Below the pieces are notes generated by a model. It saw nothing but the letters and a program-made list of their open reading frames with translations. It did no database searches and had not been told where the DNA came from. Positions 7,929-37,710 of a DNA stretch of 64,000 bases are shown here, piece after piece (positions within the stretch are counted from its first letter, which is position 1; every line of letters starts with the position of its first letter). Source of the DNA: Tequatrovirus BCH953P2; the sequence record OZ035785.1; one strand, written 5' to 3'. The position numbers were made by a program, and so were the translations under genes.

Positions 7929-8566
7929 TGAATGAACCCCAATTACTAATTGAAACTTGGGGTCAACCTGGCGAAATTATTGATGGCGTGCCAATGCTTG
8001 AATCTCATGATGGAAAAGACCTAGGTTTAAAACCTGGTTTATACATCGAAGGAATATTCATGCAAGCGGAAGTCGTCAATAGAAATAAACGTCTTTATCC
8101 AAAACGCATATTAGAAAAAGCGGTAAAAGACTATATCAATGAGCAAGTTTTAACTAAACAAGCTCTCGGAGAATTAAATCATCCTCCACGCGCTAATGTT
8201 GACCCGATGCAAGCCGCTATCATTATAGAAGATATGTGGTGGAAAGGAAATGACGTATACGGACGAGCTCGTGTTATTGAAGGTGACCATGGTCCTGGAG
8301 ATAAATTAGCAGCTAATATTCGTGCCGGATGGATTCCAGGAGTTTCTTCTCGTGGATTAGGTTCATTGACTGACACAAATAAAGGTTATCGTATCGTAAA
8401 CGAAGGATTCAAATTAACTGTAGGTGTTGATGCAGTATGGGGTCCAAGTGCTCCAGATGCATGGGTAACTCCTAAGGAAATTACCGAATCACAGACGGCG
8501 GAAGCCGATACAAGTGCCGATGACGCCTATATGGCTCTCGCAGAGGCCATGAAAAAAGCGTTATAA
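7928..8566 (+). CDS. 21: Prohead core scaffold protease (gp21)
   Basis: 212-aa ORF, length and position as T4 gp21. Confidence 0.92.
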   Translation: MNEPQLLIETWGQPGEIIDGVPMLESHDGKDLGLKPGLYIEGIFMQAEVVNRNKRLYPKRILEKAVKDYINEQVLTKQALGELNHPPRANVDPMQAAIIIEDMWWKGNDVYGRARVIEGDHGPGDKLAANIRAGWIPGVSSRGLGSLTDTNKGYRIVNEGFKLTVGVDAVWGPSAPDAWVTPKEITESQTAEADTSADDAYMALAEAMKKAL

Positions 8567-29047: not shown

Positions 29048-31099
29048 TTATCCTTGAACGAACTTGTAAGGCATGTTTGCAATATCTATGCAAGACGCAA
29101 TAATTCCAAGAGATGATTCTACTTTCTGTTTAACATTTGATGAAACAAATGATGCAAAGTCAACTCTATCTTCTATATCACCTGTCATTGCAACTACTTC
29201 GCCGGTTTCCATTAAACGGTCTCCGTCATAAATTACCGATTCGGTGAGTTCTTCTGTGGTCATAACTTCAGCTTGAATAAGCTTGTTGTTAGTTTTAACT
29301 GTTCCATCATTGTAAGATGCATCGGTTATTTTATTAACTTTGACCATTAATCCACGTGGCAAAATGACTTCCATTTCATTTGAAGGCGCTAAACTTCCAC
29401 CGGGTAAAACAACATTGACCTTATCAGCCCCAGTAATAACCCATCCAATTCCAACTAAATTATCGCTAGAATTTACTAGTCCTTCATCAGTTTTATCAAT
29501 AGAAACACTTAGACGCTTTTCGTCTGGTAAAACACCTATAGATGAATCAGTCATCCAAGTACCAAAAATATTTGGATATAATGATGTTGACACAAAGTTT
29601 CTAAAATAAAAAACTCGATTTTTTACCATTGCTTCGTATATTGAAGGTAACATTCGTTGTGAACGATACAAAGTAATACCTTTTGGTAATCGTTCACCAT
29701 TTTTAAAGGCTGAATCTAAATTATCAATGGCTTGTTCTATTTCAGGTGCTGTTAAAATACTTGTACGCTCATCTGGATTATATAATCCCAAAAGAGCATT
29801 ATTCATGTCTACGTATCCTGAACCTACATATTCACGAATTCCGCGTTTTTGCGCTGGTGTGTATTTAGATGAATCTTTATTTTCGACTATAGGATGTAAT
29901 GACCATCCAGCGGTAAGAGCATATCCACGTAATTCTCTTCGAATAATCTTTGTTTTTATTGCATTCCAAGAATTTTGTACTAACTCATTTGCAGCATCTT
30001 GGTTTAAATGCGAATGTTTGTTAATATTTCTTTCAAACCAAGCACCTTTATATTTTTCTAAAGTATCATCGACGATAGAAGCAATAGTTTCTAAAGTTTT
30101 TATTGAAGTAATAGATTCTTTTCGTAATTTTTCTAAAGCTTTATTTTTTATTTCTGCATTAATAATGGATTCTTTATCTTCAGGAATTATAGAAGCTTCT
30201 CTGAATGCCATCCCAGCTGTAATACTGCTAAGAGCATTCTCTAGTGCAAATCCTGAAGTAGAAATTACCGTTAATTCATTAGAATCAGAAATTAAAGGCG
30301 CGTCCGCTGGTTTATTTAATTCTGCCGCTGAAGCCTCAAATTTTTGAAACATCGGTGTTTCAAATCTAGAAGATTCCAATGACTGACTTTGTGCAATTGC
30401 TCTACGGGAAATTTTAACTTTAACGATTACAGCTTGGTCAGAACGTTTATCGTTTTCTTGTGCAATTGATGCTGCAATTGCCTCATTTTTAGTTACTTGG
30501 GCTCCAGTATCTTTATTGATATAAACATCACCGACTTTCGATTCAACTTTAGTAAAGAGCTCGGTACTAATTTCCGGAACTCCTGGAATGTCTTCTAGTG
30601 ATACATTTTTGCGATGTATAAGAATATATGCATACTTTTTATCGTAATCCCAGAGTTCCTTAAGAAGGACGTATCTGCCACCTGAACGACTACGGATAAG
30701 TCTATCAGCAATAACTTGAATTTGTCGAGCTTGGCCAGCAGTTTTAGACTTAAGAATACGAAGCATACAAGCATCAATTTTATATTGACGCATTGTTTGC
30801 ATTGCAACAGTAAAAACTGAATTGATATAATTAATTGGGCTTGGACCAAGACCTTTCAATTTAGCAATTGAACCTTTAGCAGTTAATGTAAAAGGAACAA
30901 TATGCATCATTTTATCGCCCATTTTTAAATCGCGATTAGTATCACCTCCAGATGTATAGGTACATAAACGAAAGCCTGGCTGTTCAATTGCATCATCAAC
31001 GTGAACTGAAAAAATTTGCGGTATTTTCTTCTTTGGATTTAAGTTTGTAATCGGAAGAGTAGTATCTTCGTCAAATAATTCTGTAATAAGTTCCATCAT
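29048..31099 (-). CDS. alt: Alt ADP-ribosyltransferase (packaged internal head protein)
   Basis: 683 aa; N-terminus and overall sequence match T4 Alt as recalled; ART motifs LYRSQ / FVSTS / EMEVILPRG; late promoter on the minus strand upstream. Confidence 0.9.
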   Translation of the reverse strand: MMELITELFDEDTTLPITNLNPKKKIPQIFSVHVDDAIEQPGFRLCTYTSGGDTNRDLKMGDKMMHIVPFTLTAKGSIAKLKGLGPSPINYINSVFTVAMQTMRQYKIDACMLRILKSKTAGQARQIQVIADRLIRSRSGGRYVLLKELWDYDKKYAYILIHRKNVSLEDIPGVPEISTELFTKVESKVGDVYINKDTGAQVTKNEAIAASIAQENDKRSDQAVIVKVKISRRAIAQSQSLESSRFETPMFQKFEASAAELNKPADAPLISDSNELTVISTSGFALENALSSITAGMAFREASIIPEDKESIINAEIKNKALEKLRKESITSIKTLETIASIVDDTLEKYKGAWFERNINKHSHLNQDAANELVQNSWNAIKTKIIRRELRGYALTAGWSLHPIVENKDSSKYTPAQKRGIREYVGSGYVDMNNALLGLYNPDERTSILTAPEIEQAIDNLDSAFKNGERLPKGITLYRSQRMLPSIYEAMVKNRVFYFRNFVSTSLYPNIFGTWMTDSSIGVLPDEKRLSVSIDKTDEGLVNSSDNLVGIGWVITGADKVNVVLPGGSLAPSNEMEVILPRGLMVKVNKITDASYNDGTVKTNNKLIQAEVMTTEELTESVIYDGDRLMETGEVVAMTGDIEDRVDFASFVSSNVKQKVESSLGIIASCIDIANMPYKFVQG

Positions 31100-31119
31100 A
31101 GCCTCTCTAGTGTTTATTC

Positions 31120-31127
31120 TATTTATA
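31120..31127 (-). promoter_or_regulatory. T4-type late promoter for alt (minus strand)
   Basis: Plus-strand TATTTATA (minus-strand TATAAATA) about 20 nt upstream of the alt ATG. Confidence 0.65.
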
Positions 31128-31133
31128 AAATTA

Positions 31134-31150
31134 AAGGCCCGAAGGCCTTT
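31134..31150 (-). terminator. Hairpin after the 62-aa ORF downstream of ligase
   Basis: AAGGCC-CGAA-GGCCTT overlapping the ORF stop. Confidence 0.5.
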
Positions 31151-31337
31151 AGTAATCTAGTGGTAAGAGAGTACGATATATTTCAAACTTTGGTCCTTTT
31201 TCATAGGCATCAAATGTTTCTGTAAATTTATTATAAGCATATGCATCTACAAATTCGAGAATGACTTGTGATACAGAAGTAGAAACATCTCCACCTTCTT
31301 TTTGAGCAATGACAATTGTTTCTAAGTAAGCTTTCAT
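31149..31337 (-). CDS. Small hypothetical protein translationally coupled to DNA ligase
   Basis: 62-aa ORF whose ATG overlaps the ligase stop (ATGA); followed by a terminator hairpin. Confidence 0.6.
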   Translation of the reverse strand: MKAYLETIVIAQKEGGDVSTSVSQVILEFVDAYAYNKFTETFDAYEKGPKFEIYRTLLPLDY

Positions 31338-32797
31338 AAACCAGTTACCTCATGAAAATCGCCAAATACATCTTCGAACGTATTAGCTTTAGTTTTATCT
31401 TCACGTAAACGAATCGCAATCGGAAGAAATAATTTAACGTAATCAGTGCGGCCATCAGATTTTAACCAACCGTTGCATTCGCACTCTAGAATTTTTCCAA
31501 TATAATAATTTTGGTTTTCCATAATGCGAGTACGGTCAAGTTCATGCGATTTTACACCAGCTTTATCTTTTAAGCCTGAACCAGCATTCACCTTAATTTT
31601 TCCACACTCTGACTCAAGAATAAATCCACCCGCTTTAGTAGGGTCTTTACGGTGAGGATAAATTCCTACAATTTTTAAATCAACATCAATTACTTCTTTA
31701 AATTTATAGAGATTTTTTGAACGGGCATTTTCCCATAACCCATCAACGTTTTTGAGAATAATACCTTCAAGACCTTGGTCAATATACTTTTTATAAATTA
31801 CCTTAGCTTCATCTAGGTTATTTACTACCTGGTTTTCAATTAAAATTACTTTATCATAGCCTGATGTCATTTGTTCTAGTTTAGAAAAACGTACATCATA
31901 TTTCAAACGAAATGCAGGAAGACCGTATATTTCTACCAACGGAACATAATCCCAGACCTGAAACTTCATGCATTGAGCTTCTTTTTCAGAAATGGTTCCC
32001 TTTAAAGATTTATTAGCGATTCCATTAGAAGTAGTACGTGATTCAGCTACTTCGGCGAATTCTTTGGCTTTACTAATTTCAGGATAAGCATCAAAAAGAA
32101 AATCTAGGCCTTCTGGCTCCTTTTTAACTTGCTCATGGTATACCAATTCGCCATCAATTAACACACCTTCTGGATGAATCTGGCGGGCTTCAGCGGTCAT
32201 TTTGATTAACTCTTCCTTAAGAAGATCTAATCCTAGATATTCATTACCAGCTCGTGATAAAAGACGGACATCATCTAATTCATCACCTCTAACTTCAGCA
32301 AAACACCGAGCTCCATCTGCTTTTAATTGTGCAAAGGCTGGAAATTTGATATTCTTACTAATGCCTTTTTCATCATAAGAACTTGCGAGCATTTGAGGTT
32401 GTTCAGGAATTAAACCTGGCCAAACTTTGTTTGCAATAGATACTGAAGCACCACATTCAAGGTCTCGCATCATCACTCGACGCAAAACTTCAACATCATC
32501 TTTTTTACCGTCAGTAATATATCCAGTTAATTCCTCAATTGCCGCATTTCCAGTCAATTTCCGAGTAGCTAACGTGAATTCAATGAAGTCGAGCATATCT
32601 GTAAGAGTCAACATTCCAAAACTCTGGGTAGCAATACCAGGTTTAGGCCATTTCTTGATATAATACTGTAACCCACGAGAATAAGTCAGACGATATACTC
32701 GTTTAAGCAATTCATTATCTTTATTCTTTTCAAGAATTGCTTGCTTCTGCTTAGTTGAACCAATAGATGCTATTTCGTTCAGAATTTTAAGAATCAT
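31334..32797 (-). CDS. 30: ATP-dependent DNA ligase (gp30)
   Basis: 487 aa; adenylation motif QLKADGARC; N-terminus MILKILNEIASIGSTKQKQAILEKNKDNELLKRVY as in T4 DNA ligase. Confidence 0.96.
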   Translation of the reverse strand: MILKILNEIASIGSTKQKQAILEKNKDNELLKRVYRLTYSRGLQYYIKKWPKPGIATQSFGMLTLTDMLDFIEFTLATRKLTGNAAIEELTGYITDGKKDDVEVLRRVMMRDLECGASVSIANKVWPGLIPEQPQMLASSYDEKGISKNIKFPAFAQLKADGARCFAEVRGDELDDVRLLSRAGNEYLGLDLLKEELIKMTAEARQIHPEGVLIDGELVYHEQVKKEPEGLDFLFDAYPEISKAKEFAEVAESRTTSNGIANKSLKGTISEKEAQCMKFQVWDYVPLVEIYGLPAFRLKYDVRFSKLEQMTSGYDKVILIENQVVNNLDEAKVIYKKYIDQGLEGIILKNVDGLWENARSKNLYKFKEVIDVDLKIVGIYPHRKDPTKAGGFILESECGKIKVNAGSGLKDKAGVKSHELDRTRIMENQNYYIGKILECECNGWLKSDGRTDYVKLFLPIAIRLREDKTKANTFEDVFGDFHEVTGL

Positions 32798-33063
32798 TGT
32801 TCATCCTTTAGAGTTTGGTTTACAGCTCTATTATAAATCAATTCATCATTAAGCTCAGTCAAAGACCTGTGGTACGTGGTTCTAACTTTATTTCCTTGCA
32901 TCCAGTGCTTGATATAAATAAAACCTTGCTCTACACATTTTTTAAAAATTCGTTCGTCTTTTTGAGCTCGGAATTCTGGATTGCATCTAAAAAATTGATT
33001 TACGTGACCATAATCACGTGTAGTATTACCTTCATTTTCATAAATAGTGTGAACAACAAACAT
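32794..33063 (-). CDS. Hypothetical protein (T4 30.1 position)
   Basis: 89-aa ORF; its stop overlaps the ligase start (ATGA). Confidence 0.7.
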   Translation of the reverse strand: MFVVHTIYENEGNTTRDYGHVNQFFRCNPEFRAQKDERIFKKCVEQGFIYIKHWMQGNKVRTTYHRSLTELNDELIYNRAVNQTLKDEQ

Positions 33064-33902
33064 TAGAATGCTCCTTGGAAAATATTATCACCACAAGTAG
33101 GTCTATTATACAAATACTCTATGCCACCAGGTTTAATATAGTTCCATGTCTGAAACGGATGTGTCTGATATGGATGATATAGATGATTATAAGGATTAAA
33201 TTCAGGAGTTCTCCAGGTAGTGTTCCAAGGAAAAGAATCGTTTTTGATCATCTTCTCGATTGCATCTTTTATAGCTTTTTCACGATCAAAACTTTCTTTA
33301 TTTTCCTTCGGTGGAAAAAGCTTATTCTCTACATCATTCCATGTATAAACTCGCTGTGCAGTTTTTGGAATACTGTCACGCTCCCCTCGAGCCATCCAAT
33401 AAACAGGAACATTTAATATTTCACTCGCGTGATCGCAGTGGTGAGCGAGATCGTCAATATAACAAATTACGTTATATTTCTCTTTTGCCTTTTTGAACAA
33501 CTCTTCTTTTGAAGAATCATGACCACACATCAGTACTTCTGAGAAGGCACCAGGAAAAAGAGCATTCAAATTAAATTGACGATTCAGCAGAGCGTCAATA
33601 GAATCACCCAGTGCTGTAACAGCAACAAAATTATAATCTTCTTTTAATTTGTTAATTACACACAGAGCATCTTTATATGGAGACAAGTAACGAATAAAAT
33701 CCGAACGATTGTATTTTTCAATTAGCTTAACGCCAAGTTCTTCATCACAGTTAAAGAGTTTACCTGGAGAAATAAATTTCTCATCCTGGATCATTTTTAA
33801 AATATGTTCTAACGGAAGATTATATTTCTGAGCAAAATAAGGAAGGCCTGATTGCCAGCTTAAACATACTCCATCAATATCAGTTAAAATAGTAGGCTTC
33901 AT
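33063..33902 (-). CDS. HAD-superfamily phosphatase-like protein (T4 30.2 position)
   Basis: 279 aa; N-terminal HAD motif I (ILTDIDGV). Confidence 0.75.
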   Translation of the reverse strand: MKPTILTDIDGVCLSWQSGLPYFAQKYNLPLEHILKMIQDEKFISPGKLFNCDEELGVKLIEKYNRSDFIRYLSPYKDALCVINKLKEDYNFVAVTALGDSIDALLNRQFNLNALFPGAFSEVLMCGHDSSKEELFKKAKEKYNVICYIDDLAHHCDHASEILNVPVYWMARGERDSIPKTAQRVYTWNDVENKLFPPKENKESFDREKAIKDAIEKMIKNDSFPWNTTWRTPEFNPYNHLYHPYQTHPFQTWNYIKPGGIEYLYNRPTCGDNIFQGAF

Positions 33903-34357
33903 AGAGAGTCTCTTAATAGGTTTAACACATCAATAAATTCAGCTTCGGTTAGTATTGTATCATCTTTTGTTAGACCACTAGCCATGCTGTGCTTCAAAAC
34001 TTTTCCTTTCGAGGCTTGTAATGCATCACGAAAGCCCTTGTTTTGGATCGCTGCTTCAAAATATGCATTTGTGTATAATTCTTTCCACGCCGGGGAGTAT
34101 CTTGAAAACGGAACTCCAAGCCAAAAGAGGGTCCCACGGTCCTGAGCTCTAGCATAAGACCTTCCAGCTTGTTGGGCGGCAAGCCCGGATAACCCAAATA
34201 TACGACGTTGTTGTTCAACATTTTTCACCTTACACCCTTGGAGGAATCCTTCAAGACCTCCAAATTGAATACCATCCATAACGAAAGGCCATTGGGCGAA
34301 ATTACTTAATGCGCATGATGGCCATCTAAAATTGCTTCTAATCTCTAACTCAGACAT
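33899..34357 (-). CDS. NADAR / YbiA-like (DUF1768) domain protein (T4 30.3 position)
   Basis: 152 aa from ATG 34357; the segment LSNFAQWPFVMDGIQFGGLEGFLQGCKV aligns with the YbiA/NADAR core FSNFAAWPIKVDGKTWPTSEHYFQAQKF recalled from E. coli YbiA. Confidence 0.65.
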   Translation of the reverse strand: MSELEIRSNFRWPSCALSNFAQWPFVMDGIQFGGLEGFLQGCKVKNVEQQRRIFGLSGLAAQQAGRSYARAQDRGTLFWLGVPFSRYSPAWKELYTNAYFEAAIQNKGFRDALQASKGKVLKHSMASGLTKDDTILTEAEFIDVLNLLRDSL

Positions 34358-34556
34358 TTTCAATACTTATAATTTCAACATCAGCCCAATGACCATAGCA
34401 AGGAAGACGAAATTCAACTGGCCAGTTAGGGTCCTTTTCTAATATAATAGACTTAACTTGTGGTTCTTCATGTTCATCAGTATATGGATTTTTATCTGTT
34501 ACTTTATATGTGACCTTAATGTACTGAATTCCAAAAATCTTATTAATTATATTCAT
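34350..34556 (-). CDS. Hypothetical small protein
   Basis: 68-aa ORF, ATG start, overlaps neighbours by a few nt in an early-gene array. Confidence 0.6.
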   Translation of the reverse strand: MNIINKIFGIQYIKVTYKVTDKNPYTDEHEEPQVKSIILEKDPNWPVEFRLPCYGHWADVEIISIENV

Positions 34557-34750
34557 ACTAGTTCCTTTAATCCGTAAATAGGAGATAATTCATCACCCAT
34601 ACGAAGGTCTTCATTCCCATCTACCCAAGAAACAATATAAGCCTCTTTTATTTGAATACCACTCCATTTAAATGGAGGTAGAACCTTAGAAATTAATCCA
34701 GGTATACCAACTCCCTTTAATTCAACTGTTTGACCTAAAAAGAATTTCAT
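34553..34750 (-). CDS. Hypothetical small protein
   Basis: 65-aa ORF, ATG start, tightly packed with neighbours. Confidence 0.6.
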   Translation of the reverse strand: MKFFLGQTVELKGVGIPGLISKVLPPFKWSGIQIKEAYIVSWVDGNEDLRMGDELSPIYGLKELV

Positions 34751-35037
34751 TAGAACCTCATCTGAAACCCGTGCGATTTAACATTACCGCCGCCAATATC
34801 AGAAATGTTAATTTCACGCGCAATTGAAGGGTCAATGTCAATTTCACGATTGAGTTTAGTGATAGCTAAAGTATCACGCCCATTTACAGTACGGAACTCT
34901 AAAGGACAAACCACATCAACGTAGTTTTTAATCGATTCGCTAGTAGGCTGCAAATGAGCAGGAAGGTCTTTAGGCGCCTTTGAGAAAACCACTTCACAGA
35001 AATTTTTGCGGGTATCAAAATAAGTAGTCATAAACAT
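34750..35037 (-). CDS. Hypothetical protein
   Basis: 95 aa from ATG 35037 (GAGGA SD); the ORF-track start at 35094 would read through a GGGGC-UUCG-GCCCC hairpin. Confidence 0.6.
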   Translation of the reverse strand: MFMTTYFDTRKNFCEVVFSKAPKDLPAHLQPTSESIKNYVDVVCPLEFRTVNGRDTLAITKLNREIDIDPSIAREINISDIGGGNVKSHGFQMRF

Positions 35038-35054
35038 AATATTTTCCTCAGTAA

Positions 35055-35068
35055 GGGGCCGAAGCCCC
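35055..35068 (-). terminator. Inter-cistronic UUCG hairpin
   Basis: GGGGC-(UUCG)-GCCCC between the stop at 35078 and the proposed ATG at 35037. Confidence 0.5.
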
Positions 35069-35077
35069 CATTTTATT

Positions 35078-35443
35078 TTAAATATCAAATTCATTAAGAA
35101 CTACATCAAAGATTGCTTCAAGATGCTCAGGTTTAGCTCTGTTACTCAGAATATGACGAATCCAAGTTTTAACCAAAAGCTTGCGATTAACGCCATTCCA
35201 GCAAGGATGAGTCCCTAAATCGCGTTCACGGAAATCATCATCCAGAGCGATTTTGAAGTTGGAACCTTCCATTGTGATTGAAACCGTGATACCGTTTTCA
35301 AATCGCATATAAACGTAGTTAGGAGTCATATACTGTTCAATTTCGCATACTGATCCATTTTGATGTTTCCAAAGGCAAATAGTATCAATAGAACCTGCAA
35401 TACCATTAGAAACATATTTACGTTCAAAGTTGATGTAGTTCAT
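35078..35443 (-). CDS. Hypothetical protein
   Basis: 121 aa from ATG 35443 (GGAG SD); the ORF-track start is a TTG. Confidence 0.65.
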   Translation of the reverse strand: MNYINFERKYVSNGIAGSIDTICLWKHQNGSVCEIEQYMTPNYVYMRFENGITVSITMEGSNFKIALDDDFRERDLGTHPCWNGVNRKLLVKTWIRHILSNRAKPEHLEAIFDVVLNEFDI

Positions 35444-35510
35444 TTTATTCTCCAAGATGTTTAATTGCGGTACAGGTATATAATATCATATCCTGTACCA
35501 AAGTAAACAA

Positions 35511-35843
35511 TTATTTTACTACTTTCCAATGCTGCATGTCAAGTTTACCAACTTTTTTCATCTTCTCAATTAAGCGTTCTGCACGTTGACGAGCTGTAAC
35601 ATAATGCCATTCGCCTAATTCATTTTGTTCAATTTTTCCAACGATTACTGTATTCAATTCATAAATCCAACCAGTAAAGAAATTATGAACTTGAATTGTA
35701 AAGGTGAAATCTGTTCCCATACCTTCTGTTGTTTCTACTTCAATAATATCACCTTCAACTGCCATTAAGAACCACATAGTTTCATCATATTTACCATTGA
35801 AGCATTTAGTTTTAACTGCAGCGTTCAGATTAATCGTTTTCAT
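35511..35843 (-). CDS. Hypothetical protein
   Basis: 110-aa ORF with ATG start. Confidence 0.65.
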   Translation of the reverse strand: MKTINLNAAVKTKCFNGKYDETMWFLMAVEGDIIEVETTEGMGTDFTFTIQVHNFFTGWIYELNTVIVGKIEQNELGEWHYVTARQRAERLIEKMKKVGKLDMQHWKVVK

Positions 35844-35930
35844 TTTATTCTCCTTTGTTTGTGTAAGATAATACTATCACAAAGGAGCTATACTGTAAAC
35901 AACTTTGTGCAATCTTTGGAAAAATAAAAA

Positions 35931-35948
35931 GGACTCCCGAAGGAGTCC
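35931..35948 (-). terminator. Intrinsic terminator (minus strand) after the basic small ORF
   Basis: GGACTCC-(UUCG)-GGAGTCC followed on the minus strand by UUUUUAUUUUU. Confidence 0.7.
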
Positions 35949-35953
35949 TCAAC

Positions 35954-36172
35954 TTATGCTTTCTGCTTACCAAAACGAGAAGCATCATCTCGAAGAACCG
36001 CACGTGCTCGGCGCATGATCTTCTCAACAGTTTGATTGATACGAGAGTTCGACCCACGCTTGTAACCAGCGCGTTTAGAATCACCAACTTTCTTTTCAAC
36101 TGCTTTCTTTGCTTTAGCTTGTTTTGCCATTATAAATTCTCTTTTAAATGAAAATGCAGGACTTATTGGCAT
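35954..36172 (-). CDS. Small highly basic protein (possible nucleic-acid binding)
   Basis: 72 aa (58 if started at the internal ATG 36130), Lys/Arg-rich; followed by a hairpin plus U-run terminator on the minus strand. Confidence 0.55.
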   Translation of the reverse strand: MPISPAFSFKREFIMAKQAKAKKAVEKKVGDSKRAGYKRGSNSRINQTVEKIMRRARAVLRDDASRFGKQKA

Positions 36173-36376
36173 TGCCTGCGAAAGCCCTCAAAGGGGTACT
36201 TAGGTTTTTGGATATTTAACGACCAGGATAACCATAAACCCGTCATCATTCACATTCAAGAGGTACACCATAAAACTGCCGGGGTCTTAAAACTATAATG
36301 ATTCGCAAATCATTAATCAGACAGTTCGATGGCTCCTCGATTTTAGCTCACACTAAGGCAGTGAATCTCCAATAAA

Positions 36377-36625
36377 TTACTTCAGTGTTACCACAAAGTG
36401 ACGAACTGCTTTTCGTGCAGCAGAAGCCAAAGGCTTAGCATATTTAAGTTCATCTTTTTCCTGAAGCTCAGCAGCTAATGCAGTTTGAGCAGGATTCAGA
36501 TGTTTGAAATAACGCAGGATTTCAAGAGCTTCGGCTTCAACATCAATAGATGCGCCATAGTTTTCGTGACCATTATTCCATGCGTTTCGTTGCAGTTCAA
36601 GAGCGTGTTGTAATTGTTTAATCAT
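36377..36625 (-). CDS. rIII: rIII lysis-inhibition accessory protein
   Basis: 82-aa ORF, same length and position (between the 30.x ORFs and gene 31) as T4 rIII. Confidence 0.85.
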   Translation of the reverse strand: MIKQLQHALELQRNAWNNGHENYGASIDVEAEALEILRYFKHLNPAQTALAAELQEKDELKYAKPLASAARKAVRHFVVTLK

Positions 36626-36764
36626 TTAAAAATTCTCGTTAGAGATTAAAACTCGGTAGTCACGTTCTTCTGAATTTCATCTTCTTTCGACAGATCTCTC
36701 AGTTGTAGACTACCACGTAGAATTGTTCGGTTAACTTATTATTCCGACACCCAATTCATATTAT

Positions 36765-36772
36765 TATTTATA
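36765..36772 (-). promoter_or_regulatory. T4-type late promoter upstream of rIII (minus strand)
   Basis: Minus-strand TATAAATA immediately downstream of the gene 31 stop. Confidence 0.55.
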
Positions 36773-37108
36773 TCACTTATAAAGACATGGAATAGCTTTA
36801 TAGTGACAAGTAACGAATTTTTGTTTAATTTCTTTTGGCTGCTTAAGACCCAGAGCTACAAAAGGATGCGGAACATTTCGAATTTGACCAACTGGAAGAG
36901 AAGTCAAATCACCAACTTCGCAGAAACCTTTAGGAACATCAGGACCAACAGAGTGAACTACACACAATTCAGGAACTTCACCTTGAACACGTTTACCGAT
37001 AATAAGTCCTGATTCTGTAACTTCTTCATCACCGGCTTGTGCAGGTTCAGAAACTAAAATAACATATTCACCGACAGCACGAATTGGTAGCTGTTGTACT
37101 TCAGACAT
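36773..37108 (-). CDS. 31: gp31 co-chaperonin (GroES analogue)
   Basis: 111-aa ORF, same length as T4 gp31. Confidence 0.9.
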
Positions 37109-37164
37109 CGTTTTTCCTTTTTGCTAACAGATGAATTAATAATAACAAATAATTCTTAAAGCAT

Positions 37165-37473
37165 TTATTTACCAATAAATTGAAGCAAATGCTCAACTTT
37201 CATACCATTAACAGAAATCAATTTGTCAATAGAAAAACCTCGCCAAGCGCCAAGTTCAACATCAAATACTGGAATCATGTCAGTAGATTCTTTCCGAGTA
37301 GATTCAGTCAATTTACCAGTTTGCATGGTTGGCATAAAGTCTGCATCACGCGTACCTTTCATAGTACGAATAGTACCATCAGACTTTTCAAAAACTACGT
37401 TTGAAACACCCATGGACAGTTTAGTTTTCAAAATTTCACGAATTGCTACTTTCTGCTCAGTTGTCAGTTTCAT
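37165..37473 (-). CDS. Hypothetical protein (T4 31.1 position)
   Basis: 102-aa ORF with ATG start. Confidence 0.7.
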   Translation of the reverse strand: MKLTTEQKVAIREILKTKLSMGVSNVVFEKSDGTIRTMKGTRDADFMPTMQTGKLTESTRKESTDMIPVFDVELGAWRGFSIDKLISVNGMKVEHLLQFIGK

Positions 37474-37710
37474 TTATTTACCTATTACAGTTTTAATATG
37501 AGTTGTTCCACGTTCTTTAAGGGTGGAAAGTAATTTTTGGCATTTTTCTAAATCAGATTTCCAACTATATGGTTTATCAATACAAACCCAATTTGTCTTA
37601 TAATACTGTTTCCATTTAGAGAAAAAATATTTCTTATACTCTACAGCAAACGAGATGTTCTCATTAGAATAAGAACTAATTGCTGTGAGCTTTACCAAAC
37701 GAAATTTCAT
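37474..37710 (-). CDS. Hypothetical protein (T4 31.2 position)
   Basis: 78-aa ORF, start overlaps the cd stop. Confidence 0.65.
   Translation of the reverse strand: MKFRLVKLTAISSYSNENISFAVEYKKYFFSKWKQYYKTNWVCIDKPYSWKSDLEKCQKLLSTLKERGTTHIKTVIGK

Follow-up and report, generated by a model that had tools for sequence, protein, structure and literature searches.

The 64,000-nucleotide stretch of DNA analysed here (the window; Tequatrovirus BCH953P2, sequence record OZ035785.1) carries an open reading frame (ORF) that, judged by its sequence, is T4 gene 30.3 (adfN), which codes for an already characterised anti-DarT enzyme. We put at about 93% the probability that this is the adfN gene of a T4-like phage and that its product is a minimal stand-alone NADAR enzyme reversing the guanine ADP-ribosylation made by DarT1, thereby enabling growth on DarTG1 hosts. 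As the family, the enzymology and the biological role of gp30.3 have already been published, the gene is not novel.

By nucleotide comparison, the window is T4-like phage DNA with ∼ 97% identity: the 2.5-kb stretch around adfN shows 97.2–97.6% identity with T4 and with many T4-like Tequatrovirus genomes and is matched by 733 phage records. The encoded protein has the same length as T4 gp30.3 and is identical to it in 151 of 152 positions, the sole change being the conservative substitution I125M. Met is common at position 125 (two residues after H123) in the 57-member family alignment described below, so this change is unlikely to have an effect and the allele would be expected to behave as T4 AdfN. 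The protein also matches all 138 positions (1–138) of the Pfam model PF08010 'Bacteriophage protein GP30.3' (Phage_30_3), with E = 2.2e-70 and a score of 235 bits (cutoff 36). Given this full-model match and the identity with T4 gp30.3, it is not the product of a chance ORF. A further match is to PHROG 652, a group of unknown function (E = 1.7e-51), and public records label gp30.3 a hypothetical protein.

The limits of adfN were taken from the ORF listing and from direct reading of the sequence (Table 1). They confirm the 152-aa ORF given in an earlier note on this DNA, which had not specified the strand; it is the minus strand. The gene starts with ATG at 34357 and ends with TGA at 33901..33899. 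The ORF lister puts the start at a TTG codon (34363), which adds two residues, whereas the T4 annotation (T4T record) uses ATG as the 30.3 start codon. Start and stop codons overlap with those of the neighbouring genes on both sides of adfN, which points to a tightly packed gene string in which adfN is probably coupled translationally to 30.4 and 30.2. The gene order 30–30.1–30.2–30.3–30.4 is the same as in the T4T annotation, which has as counterparts 30 (DNA ligase), 30.1, 30.2, 30.3, 30.3', 30.4 and further ones. The internal out-of-frame ORF 30.3' (75 aa, 33994..34221, minus strand), annotated within T4 gene 30.3, is open here too. In two database variants (P0015 and P0016) the frame switches between that of 30.3 and that of 30.3'; shifts of frame within this part of the gene are thus tolerated in nature.

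Table 1. Features of the adfN region in the window, in order of position.
Feature	Position	Strand	Basis
Alt-type ADP-ribosyltransferase, full-length, 685 aa	26987..29044	-	PF03496
Alt-type ADP-ribosyltransferase, full-length, 683 aa	29048..31099	-	PF03496
DNA ligase gene 30	31334..32797		ORF listing, Pfam
Gene 30.1, DUF3045	32794..33063		ORF listing, Pfam
Gene 30.2, 279 aa	33063..33902	-	ORF listing
adfN (T4 gene 30.3) coding sequence, phage-type NADAR DNA ADP-ribosylglycohydrolase; 152 aa + stop	33899..34357	-	ORF listing, identity with T4 gp30.3
ATGA overlap of adfN stop codon and 30.2 start codon	33899..33902	-	Sequence read directly, ORF coordinates, T4 annotation
C-terminal alpha-helix, residues 138–152 (helix 138–151 in the model), intact	33902..33946	-	AlphaFold2 model; identical to T4 here
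H123, last-strand residue, codon CAC	33989..33991	-	Invariant in A1; directly after model strand 120–122
K43, phosphate-coordinating lysine, codon AAG	34229..34231	-	At least 90% conserved in A1; alignment to YbiA; T4 K43A impaired
E36, catalytic glutamate, codon GAA	34250..34252	-	Invariant in A1; alignment to YbiA; T4 E36A impaired
Conserved N-terminal NADAR core motif, residues 17–44, LSNFAQWPFVMDGIQFGGLEGFLQGCKV	34226..34309	-	Aligns with YbiA 29–56 (hmmsearch, hhalign)
ATGTCTGA overlap of 30.4 stop codon and adfN start codon	34350..34357	-	Sequence read directly, ORF coordinates, T4 annotation
Gene 30.4	34350..34556		ORF listing, Pfam

Two strong terminator-like hairpins with coding-strand T-tracts bracket the 30.8-to-alt.1 gene string that includes adfN: the first, at 35929..35950 (minus), separates 30.9 from 30.8, and the second, at 31132..31151 (minus), separates alt.1 from alt. 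A near-consensus sigma-70-like site (TTGACA-18-TAAAAT, 35542..35513) lies upstream of 30.7, although such sites are not commoner here than in shuffled sequence. The promoter scan of positions 31000–37500 returned 22 sites where chance alone would give 21.2 and is therefore uninformative.

Assignment to the NADAR family follows from comparisons made at the level of the family. The check proposed in the earlier note, a HMMER search against PF08719 (NADAR), failed, as a direct Pfam scan of the window protein gave no match to this model even at E ≤ 1. The choice of test was unfortunate, as Pfam gives the phage subfamily a model of its own, PF08010; since PF08010 covers the subfamily and the profile and fold tests described below were positive, we set this absence aside as a refutation. 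Searches with the window protein alone gave no match in NCBIfam or PADLOC, and phmmer with this single sequence returned only noise from the PDB sequences (best, 3rjz at E = 0.6). A large protein collection contained 104 homologs, several of which bear the JGI COG name 'YbiA (DUF1768 family)' and one of which is recorded with PF08010 as well as PF08719. In an alignment of 57 diverse full-length family members (A1), 8 of the 57 individually match PF08719, with a best E-value of 1.5e-7. When the A1 profile was compared with all PDB sequences using hmmsearch, E. coli YbiA (2b3w) was the sole match (E = 0.0056), and hhalign of A1 against full-length YbiA gave a probability of 94% (E = 1.5e-7) over 91 columns. 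The structure prediction suggested in the earlier note yielded a confident AlphaFold2 model with a NADAR fold (built on A1; mean pLDDT 94.3, pTM 0.89). Thus, by its fold, its profile homology to YbiA and its catalytic residues, the window protein is a NADAR-fold enzyme, and the YbiA/NADAR membership claimed for it stands. The gp30.3 protein had previously been listed as a "phage NADAR" in bioinformatic classifications.

The alignment of A1 with YbiA produced by hmmsearch spans the motif quoted in the earlier note. Both hmmsearch and hhalign pair YbiA residues 29–56 (FSNFAAWPIKVDGKTWPTSEHYFQAQKF) with residues 17–44 of the window protein (LSNFAQWPFVMDGIQFGGLEGFLQGCKV), which bears out the residue-by-residue correspondence with the YbiA core described there. 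All 57 A1 members share L17, S18, N19, F20, F25, E36, G37, F38 and Q40. Within the N-terminal motif, the NADAR-defining Glu is followed seven residues later by the Lys, giving E43/K50 in P. nicotianae NADAR (PnNADAR) and E88/K95 in E. coli C7 NADAR; the role of K50/K95 has been described (PMC11543638). Their equivalents are E36 and K43 in the window protein and E48 and K55 in YbiA. When the hhalign alignment is extended by a single residue beyond its end, H123 comes to stand against YbiA E125. A His in the last strand defines the phage (gp30.3) NADAR subfamily, with Glu in the YbiA family and Asp in the DarT1-associated family (PMC11125620, PMC11543638). The conserved catalytic residues, whose absence was to count against the assignment, are thus present after proper alignment: E36 and K43, and H123 in addition to them.

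The C-terminal helix is intact; the RB69 allele, which lacks the last 15 residues, is inactive (PMC11825919). Disrupted natural adfN alleles are also seen among the database relatives P0013, P0014, P0051, P0094 and P0007, some of which could be gene-calling artefacts. In P0013 the frame shifts after about residue 83 of gp30.3. In P0014, P0051 and P0094, the N-termini of gp30.7, gp30.8 or gp30.4 are fused to the C-terminal part of gp30.3, which implies deletions across 30.3–30.8 with loss of E36 and K43. Judging from RB69, phages with disrupted adfN alleles are predicted to be DarTG1-sensitive.

The function of the T4 protein has been established experimentally. Resistance of T2 and T4 to DarTG1 was mapped to gene 30.3, which was renamed adfN (Johannesman et al., Nat Commun 2025, PMC11825919). 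In the same study, deletion of adfN in T4 or T2 abolished plaquing on DarTG1 hosts, ectopic expression of adfN rescued RB69 against DarTG1, and purified T4 AdfN stripped ADP-ribose from DarT1-modified DNA; against DarTG2, AdfN was without effect. The E36A and K43A variants of T4 AdfN and an RB69-like truncation were impaired, although with E36A and K43A the loss in vivo was only partial (PMC11825919). An independent transposon-sequencing study (HIDEN-SEQ preprint, 2025) found 30.3/adfN to be dispensable on K-12, and this is lost on DarTG1 hosts. In T-even infection, T4 AdfN is both necessary and sufficient against DarTG1, and its gene is conditionally essential. The phage NADAR was shown in vitro to hydrolyse guanosine-ADP-ribose, and not thymidine-ADP-ribose, on DNA, and to be incapable of rescuing uninfected cells from DarT1 (Cihlova et al., 2024, PMC11125620). 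In the methods of that paper, the construct named 'E. coli T4 phage NADAR (gp30.3)' spans residues 1–208, as against the 152 aa of T4 gp30.3; this may reflect an included tag or another phage source and is a caveat for relying on that T4 assay. AdfN(T4) is fully active only in T-even infection, independently of DNA hypermodification, and rescues non-T-even phages only weakly, from which a T-even cofactor was inferred (PMC11825919). The failure to rescue uninfected cells and the weak rescue of non-T-even phages likewise suggest that AdfN(T4) needs a T-even factor.

Because the DarTG1 role has been demonstrated for a protein 99% identical to that of the window (PMC11825919, PMC11125620 and the HIDEN-SEQ preprint), the idea put forward in the earlier note, that the enzyme could counter host toxins of the DarTG type, was correct. 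The adfN case is therefore a calibration point: a reading made from nothing but the raw sequence inferred both the family and the biological role correctly.

Transferred to the window phage, the mechanism would run as follows. The adfN gene would be co-transcribed with the other 30.x genes of the minus strand, and its translation would be coupled to that of 30.4 and 30.2. On infection of a DarTG1 host, DarT1 would ADP-ribosylate guanines in the phage DNA and block replication. AdfN would bind the ADP-ribose moiety, with K43 at the phosphates and E36 and H123 at the distal ribose, and would hydrolyse the N-glycosidic bond between ribose and guanine, leaving unmodified DNA so that the phage could replicate. 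These per-residue roles are suggested by analogy with the crystal structure of P. nicotianae NADAR with ADP-ribose. Since it carries an intact adfN allele, the window phage, unlike RB69, is predicted to be resistant to DarTG1.

The Alt ADP-ribosyltransferases that the earlier note had placed about 3 kb away are indeed there, as two full-length tandem paralogs, 41% identical to each other, that lie 2.8–6.9 kb from adfN on the same strand, the nearer one ending 2.8 kb away. T4 itself has a single alt gene and fragments, alt.-1 and alt.-2, of a decayed second copy (T4T record), so that the window phage keeps the ancestral two-gene state. The nearby Alt paralogs are one point in favour of another reading, close to the second suggestion of the earlier note (modulation of the phage's own Alt-type modifications), in which AdfN mainly edits the phage's own marks, removing the ADP-ribose or RNA chains that Alt, ModA and ModB set on host proteins and so tuning or timing them. 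Also in its favour are a contextual remark made in 2022 that T4-like phage NADARs are expressed early together with ADP-ribosyltransferases (ARTs) (PMC9503650) and a discussion (Toxins 2024) in which protein and RNAylation substrates of NADARs in general remain conceivable. We nevertheless found no support for a modulation of Alt-type protein marks and consider it very unlikely that such editing is the main role. Known NADAR chemistry is hydrolysis of the guanine-N2-ribose bond, whereas Alt-type enzymes modify arginine, as is also noted in the T4 record. No assay of a NADAR on arginine- or protein-linked ADP-ribose was found in the cited NADAR literature. The phenotype of the adfN deletion is DarTG1-specific, with the gene dispensable on plain K-12 (PMC11825919, HIDEN-SEQ preprint), and reversal of DarT1 modification explains the published phenotype fully. 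In addition, no ART gene was found within 8 kb of two distant AdfN homologs on large phage-like contigs, so proximity to Alt does not characterise the AdfN family as a whole.

These two homologs (L003 and L006, ∼ 38% identity, each at 8001..8468) are encoded on phage-like contigs of 82–308 kb. The L003 gene lies near NUDIX and Thg1-like genes and the L006 gene near a PRPP-synthetase-like gene and a GGDEF protein; these surroundings differ from those in T4 and may indicate a connection with the metabolism of nucleotides or ADP-ribose. The neighbours of adfN in the window (30.2 and 30.4–30.6) contain no DarT or other toxin domain detectable with Pfam. We also considered gp30.2 as a conserved functional partner or cofactor of AdfN and found no support for this, as its position next to the AdfN gene is not conserved among distant homologs: the downstream genes of two of these, P0041 and P0083, show no relationship to gp30.2 (BLASTP E > 2). 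The gp30.2 protein itself has no match in Pfam, PADLOC or the PDB sequences and matches only PHROG 420 (unknown function). Its N-terminal ...ILTDIDGV... stretch resembles the DxDG motif of HAD-type phosphatases.

A main role on small molecules, either as a YbiA-like N-glycosidase clearing reactive intermediates of the riboflavin pathway or, as proposed in 2022 for phage NADARs, as a scavenger of soluble ADP-ribose-derived immune signals, likewise seems to us very unlikely. The fold and motif are common to E. coli YbiA, which is annotated as an N-glycosidase, and some distant homologs lie near NUDIX or PRPP-synthetase genes. Against such a role, the subfamily has the last-strand His and not the Glu that defines YbiA, activity on ADP-ribosylated DNA and a phenotype in DNA-level defence have been published (PMC11125620, PMC11825919), and a 2025 phylogeny puts the T4 NADAR cluster nearest to the DarT1-associated antitoxins and not to YbiA (PMC11825919). 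Finally, the missing PF08719 match at E ≤ 1, the phmmer noise against the PDB and the hypothetical annotations might suggest that the motif is a chance resemblance in some unrelated phage protein without known function. This reading is refuted by the profile match to YbiA, the PF08719 matches of 8 of the 57 family members, the fold and the hhalign result.

Reversal of DarT1 modification thus remains the preferred function of AdfN. The dependence on a T-even factor and the constant early co-expression with phage ADP-ribosyltransferases leave room for a wider role of the His-type phage NADAR. It may, as a rather unlikely extension, form a complex with another phage protein or act on a second class of substrates during infection, for instance RNA or DNA whose guanines other host toxins have ADP-ribosylated, or by-products of Alt and Mod activity.

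Among the known NADARs, the DarT1-associated antitoxins described by Schuller et al. (Mol Cell 2023, PMC11543638; DarG1, BC4488 family; Geobacter lovleyi NADAR, 8bat, and E. coli C7 NADAR) are encoded adjacent to darT1; their YbiA core follows a basic N-terminal extension (8bat has 219 aa), and their last strand carries a catalytic Asp. By contrast, adfN has no adjacent darT1, its 152-aa product has only 16 residues before the motif and His123 in place of the Asp, and it cannot serve as an antitoxin in uninfected cells. These features would place it outside the DarG1 group. E. coli YbiA (PDB 2b3w), an N-glycosidase of riboflavin intermediates with a housekeeping role, is encoded on the chromosome beside dinG, reportedly in a LexA-controlled operon (PMC11125620). 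Its sequence similarity to AdfN is detectable only by profiles, and it has Glu125 where AdfN has His123, so that AdfN would also fall outside the YbiA family. AdfN(Bas32), AdfN(Bas60) and other phage NADARs from outside the T4 superfamily are likewise stand-alone enzymes that counter DarTG1 and are specific for guanine-ADP-ribose. They differ in belonging to other NADAR clades, acquired independently, and in being active without a T-even factor, also in uninfected cells (PMC11825919). The closest counterpart is T4 gp30.3 itself, AdfN(T4), which occupies the same slot between 30.2 and 30.4 downstream of the ligase gene 30 and has E36, K43, H123 and the C-terminal helix in common with the window allele, whereas the window phage, unlike T4, keeps a second full-length alt gene nearby.
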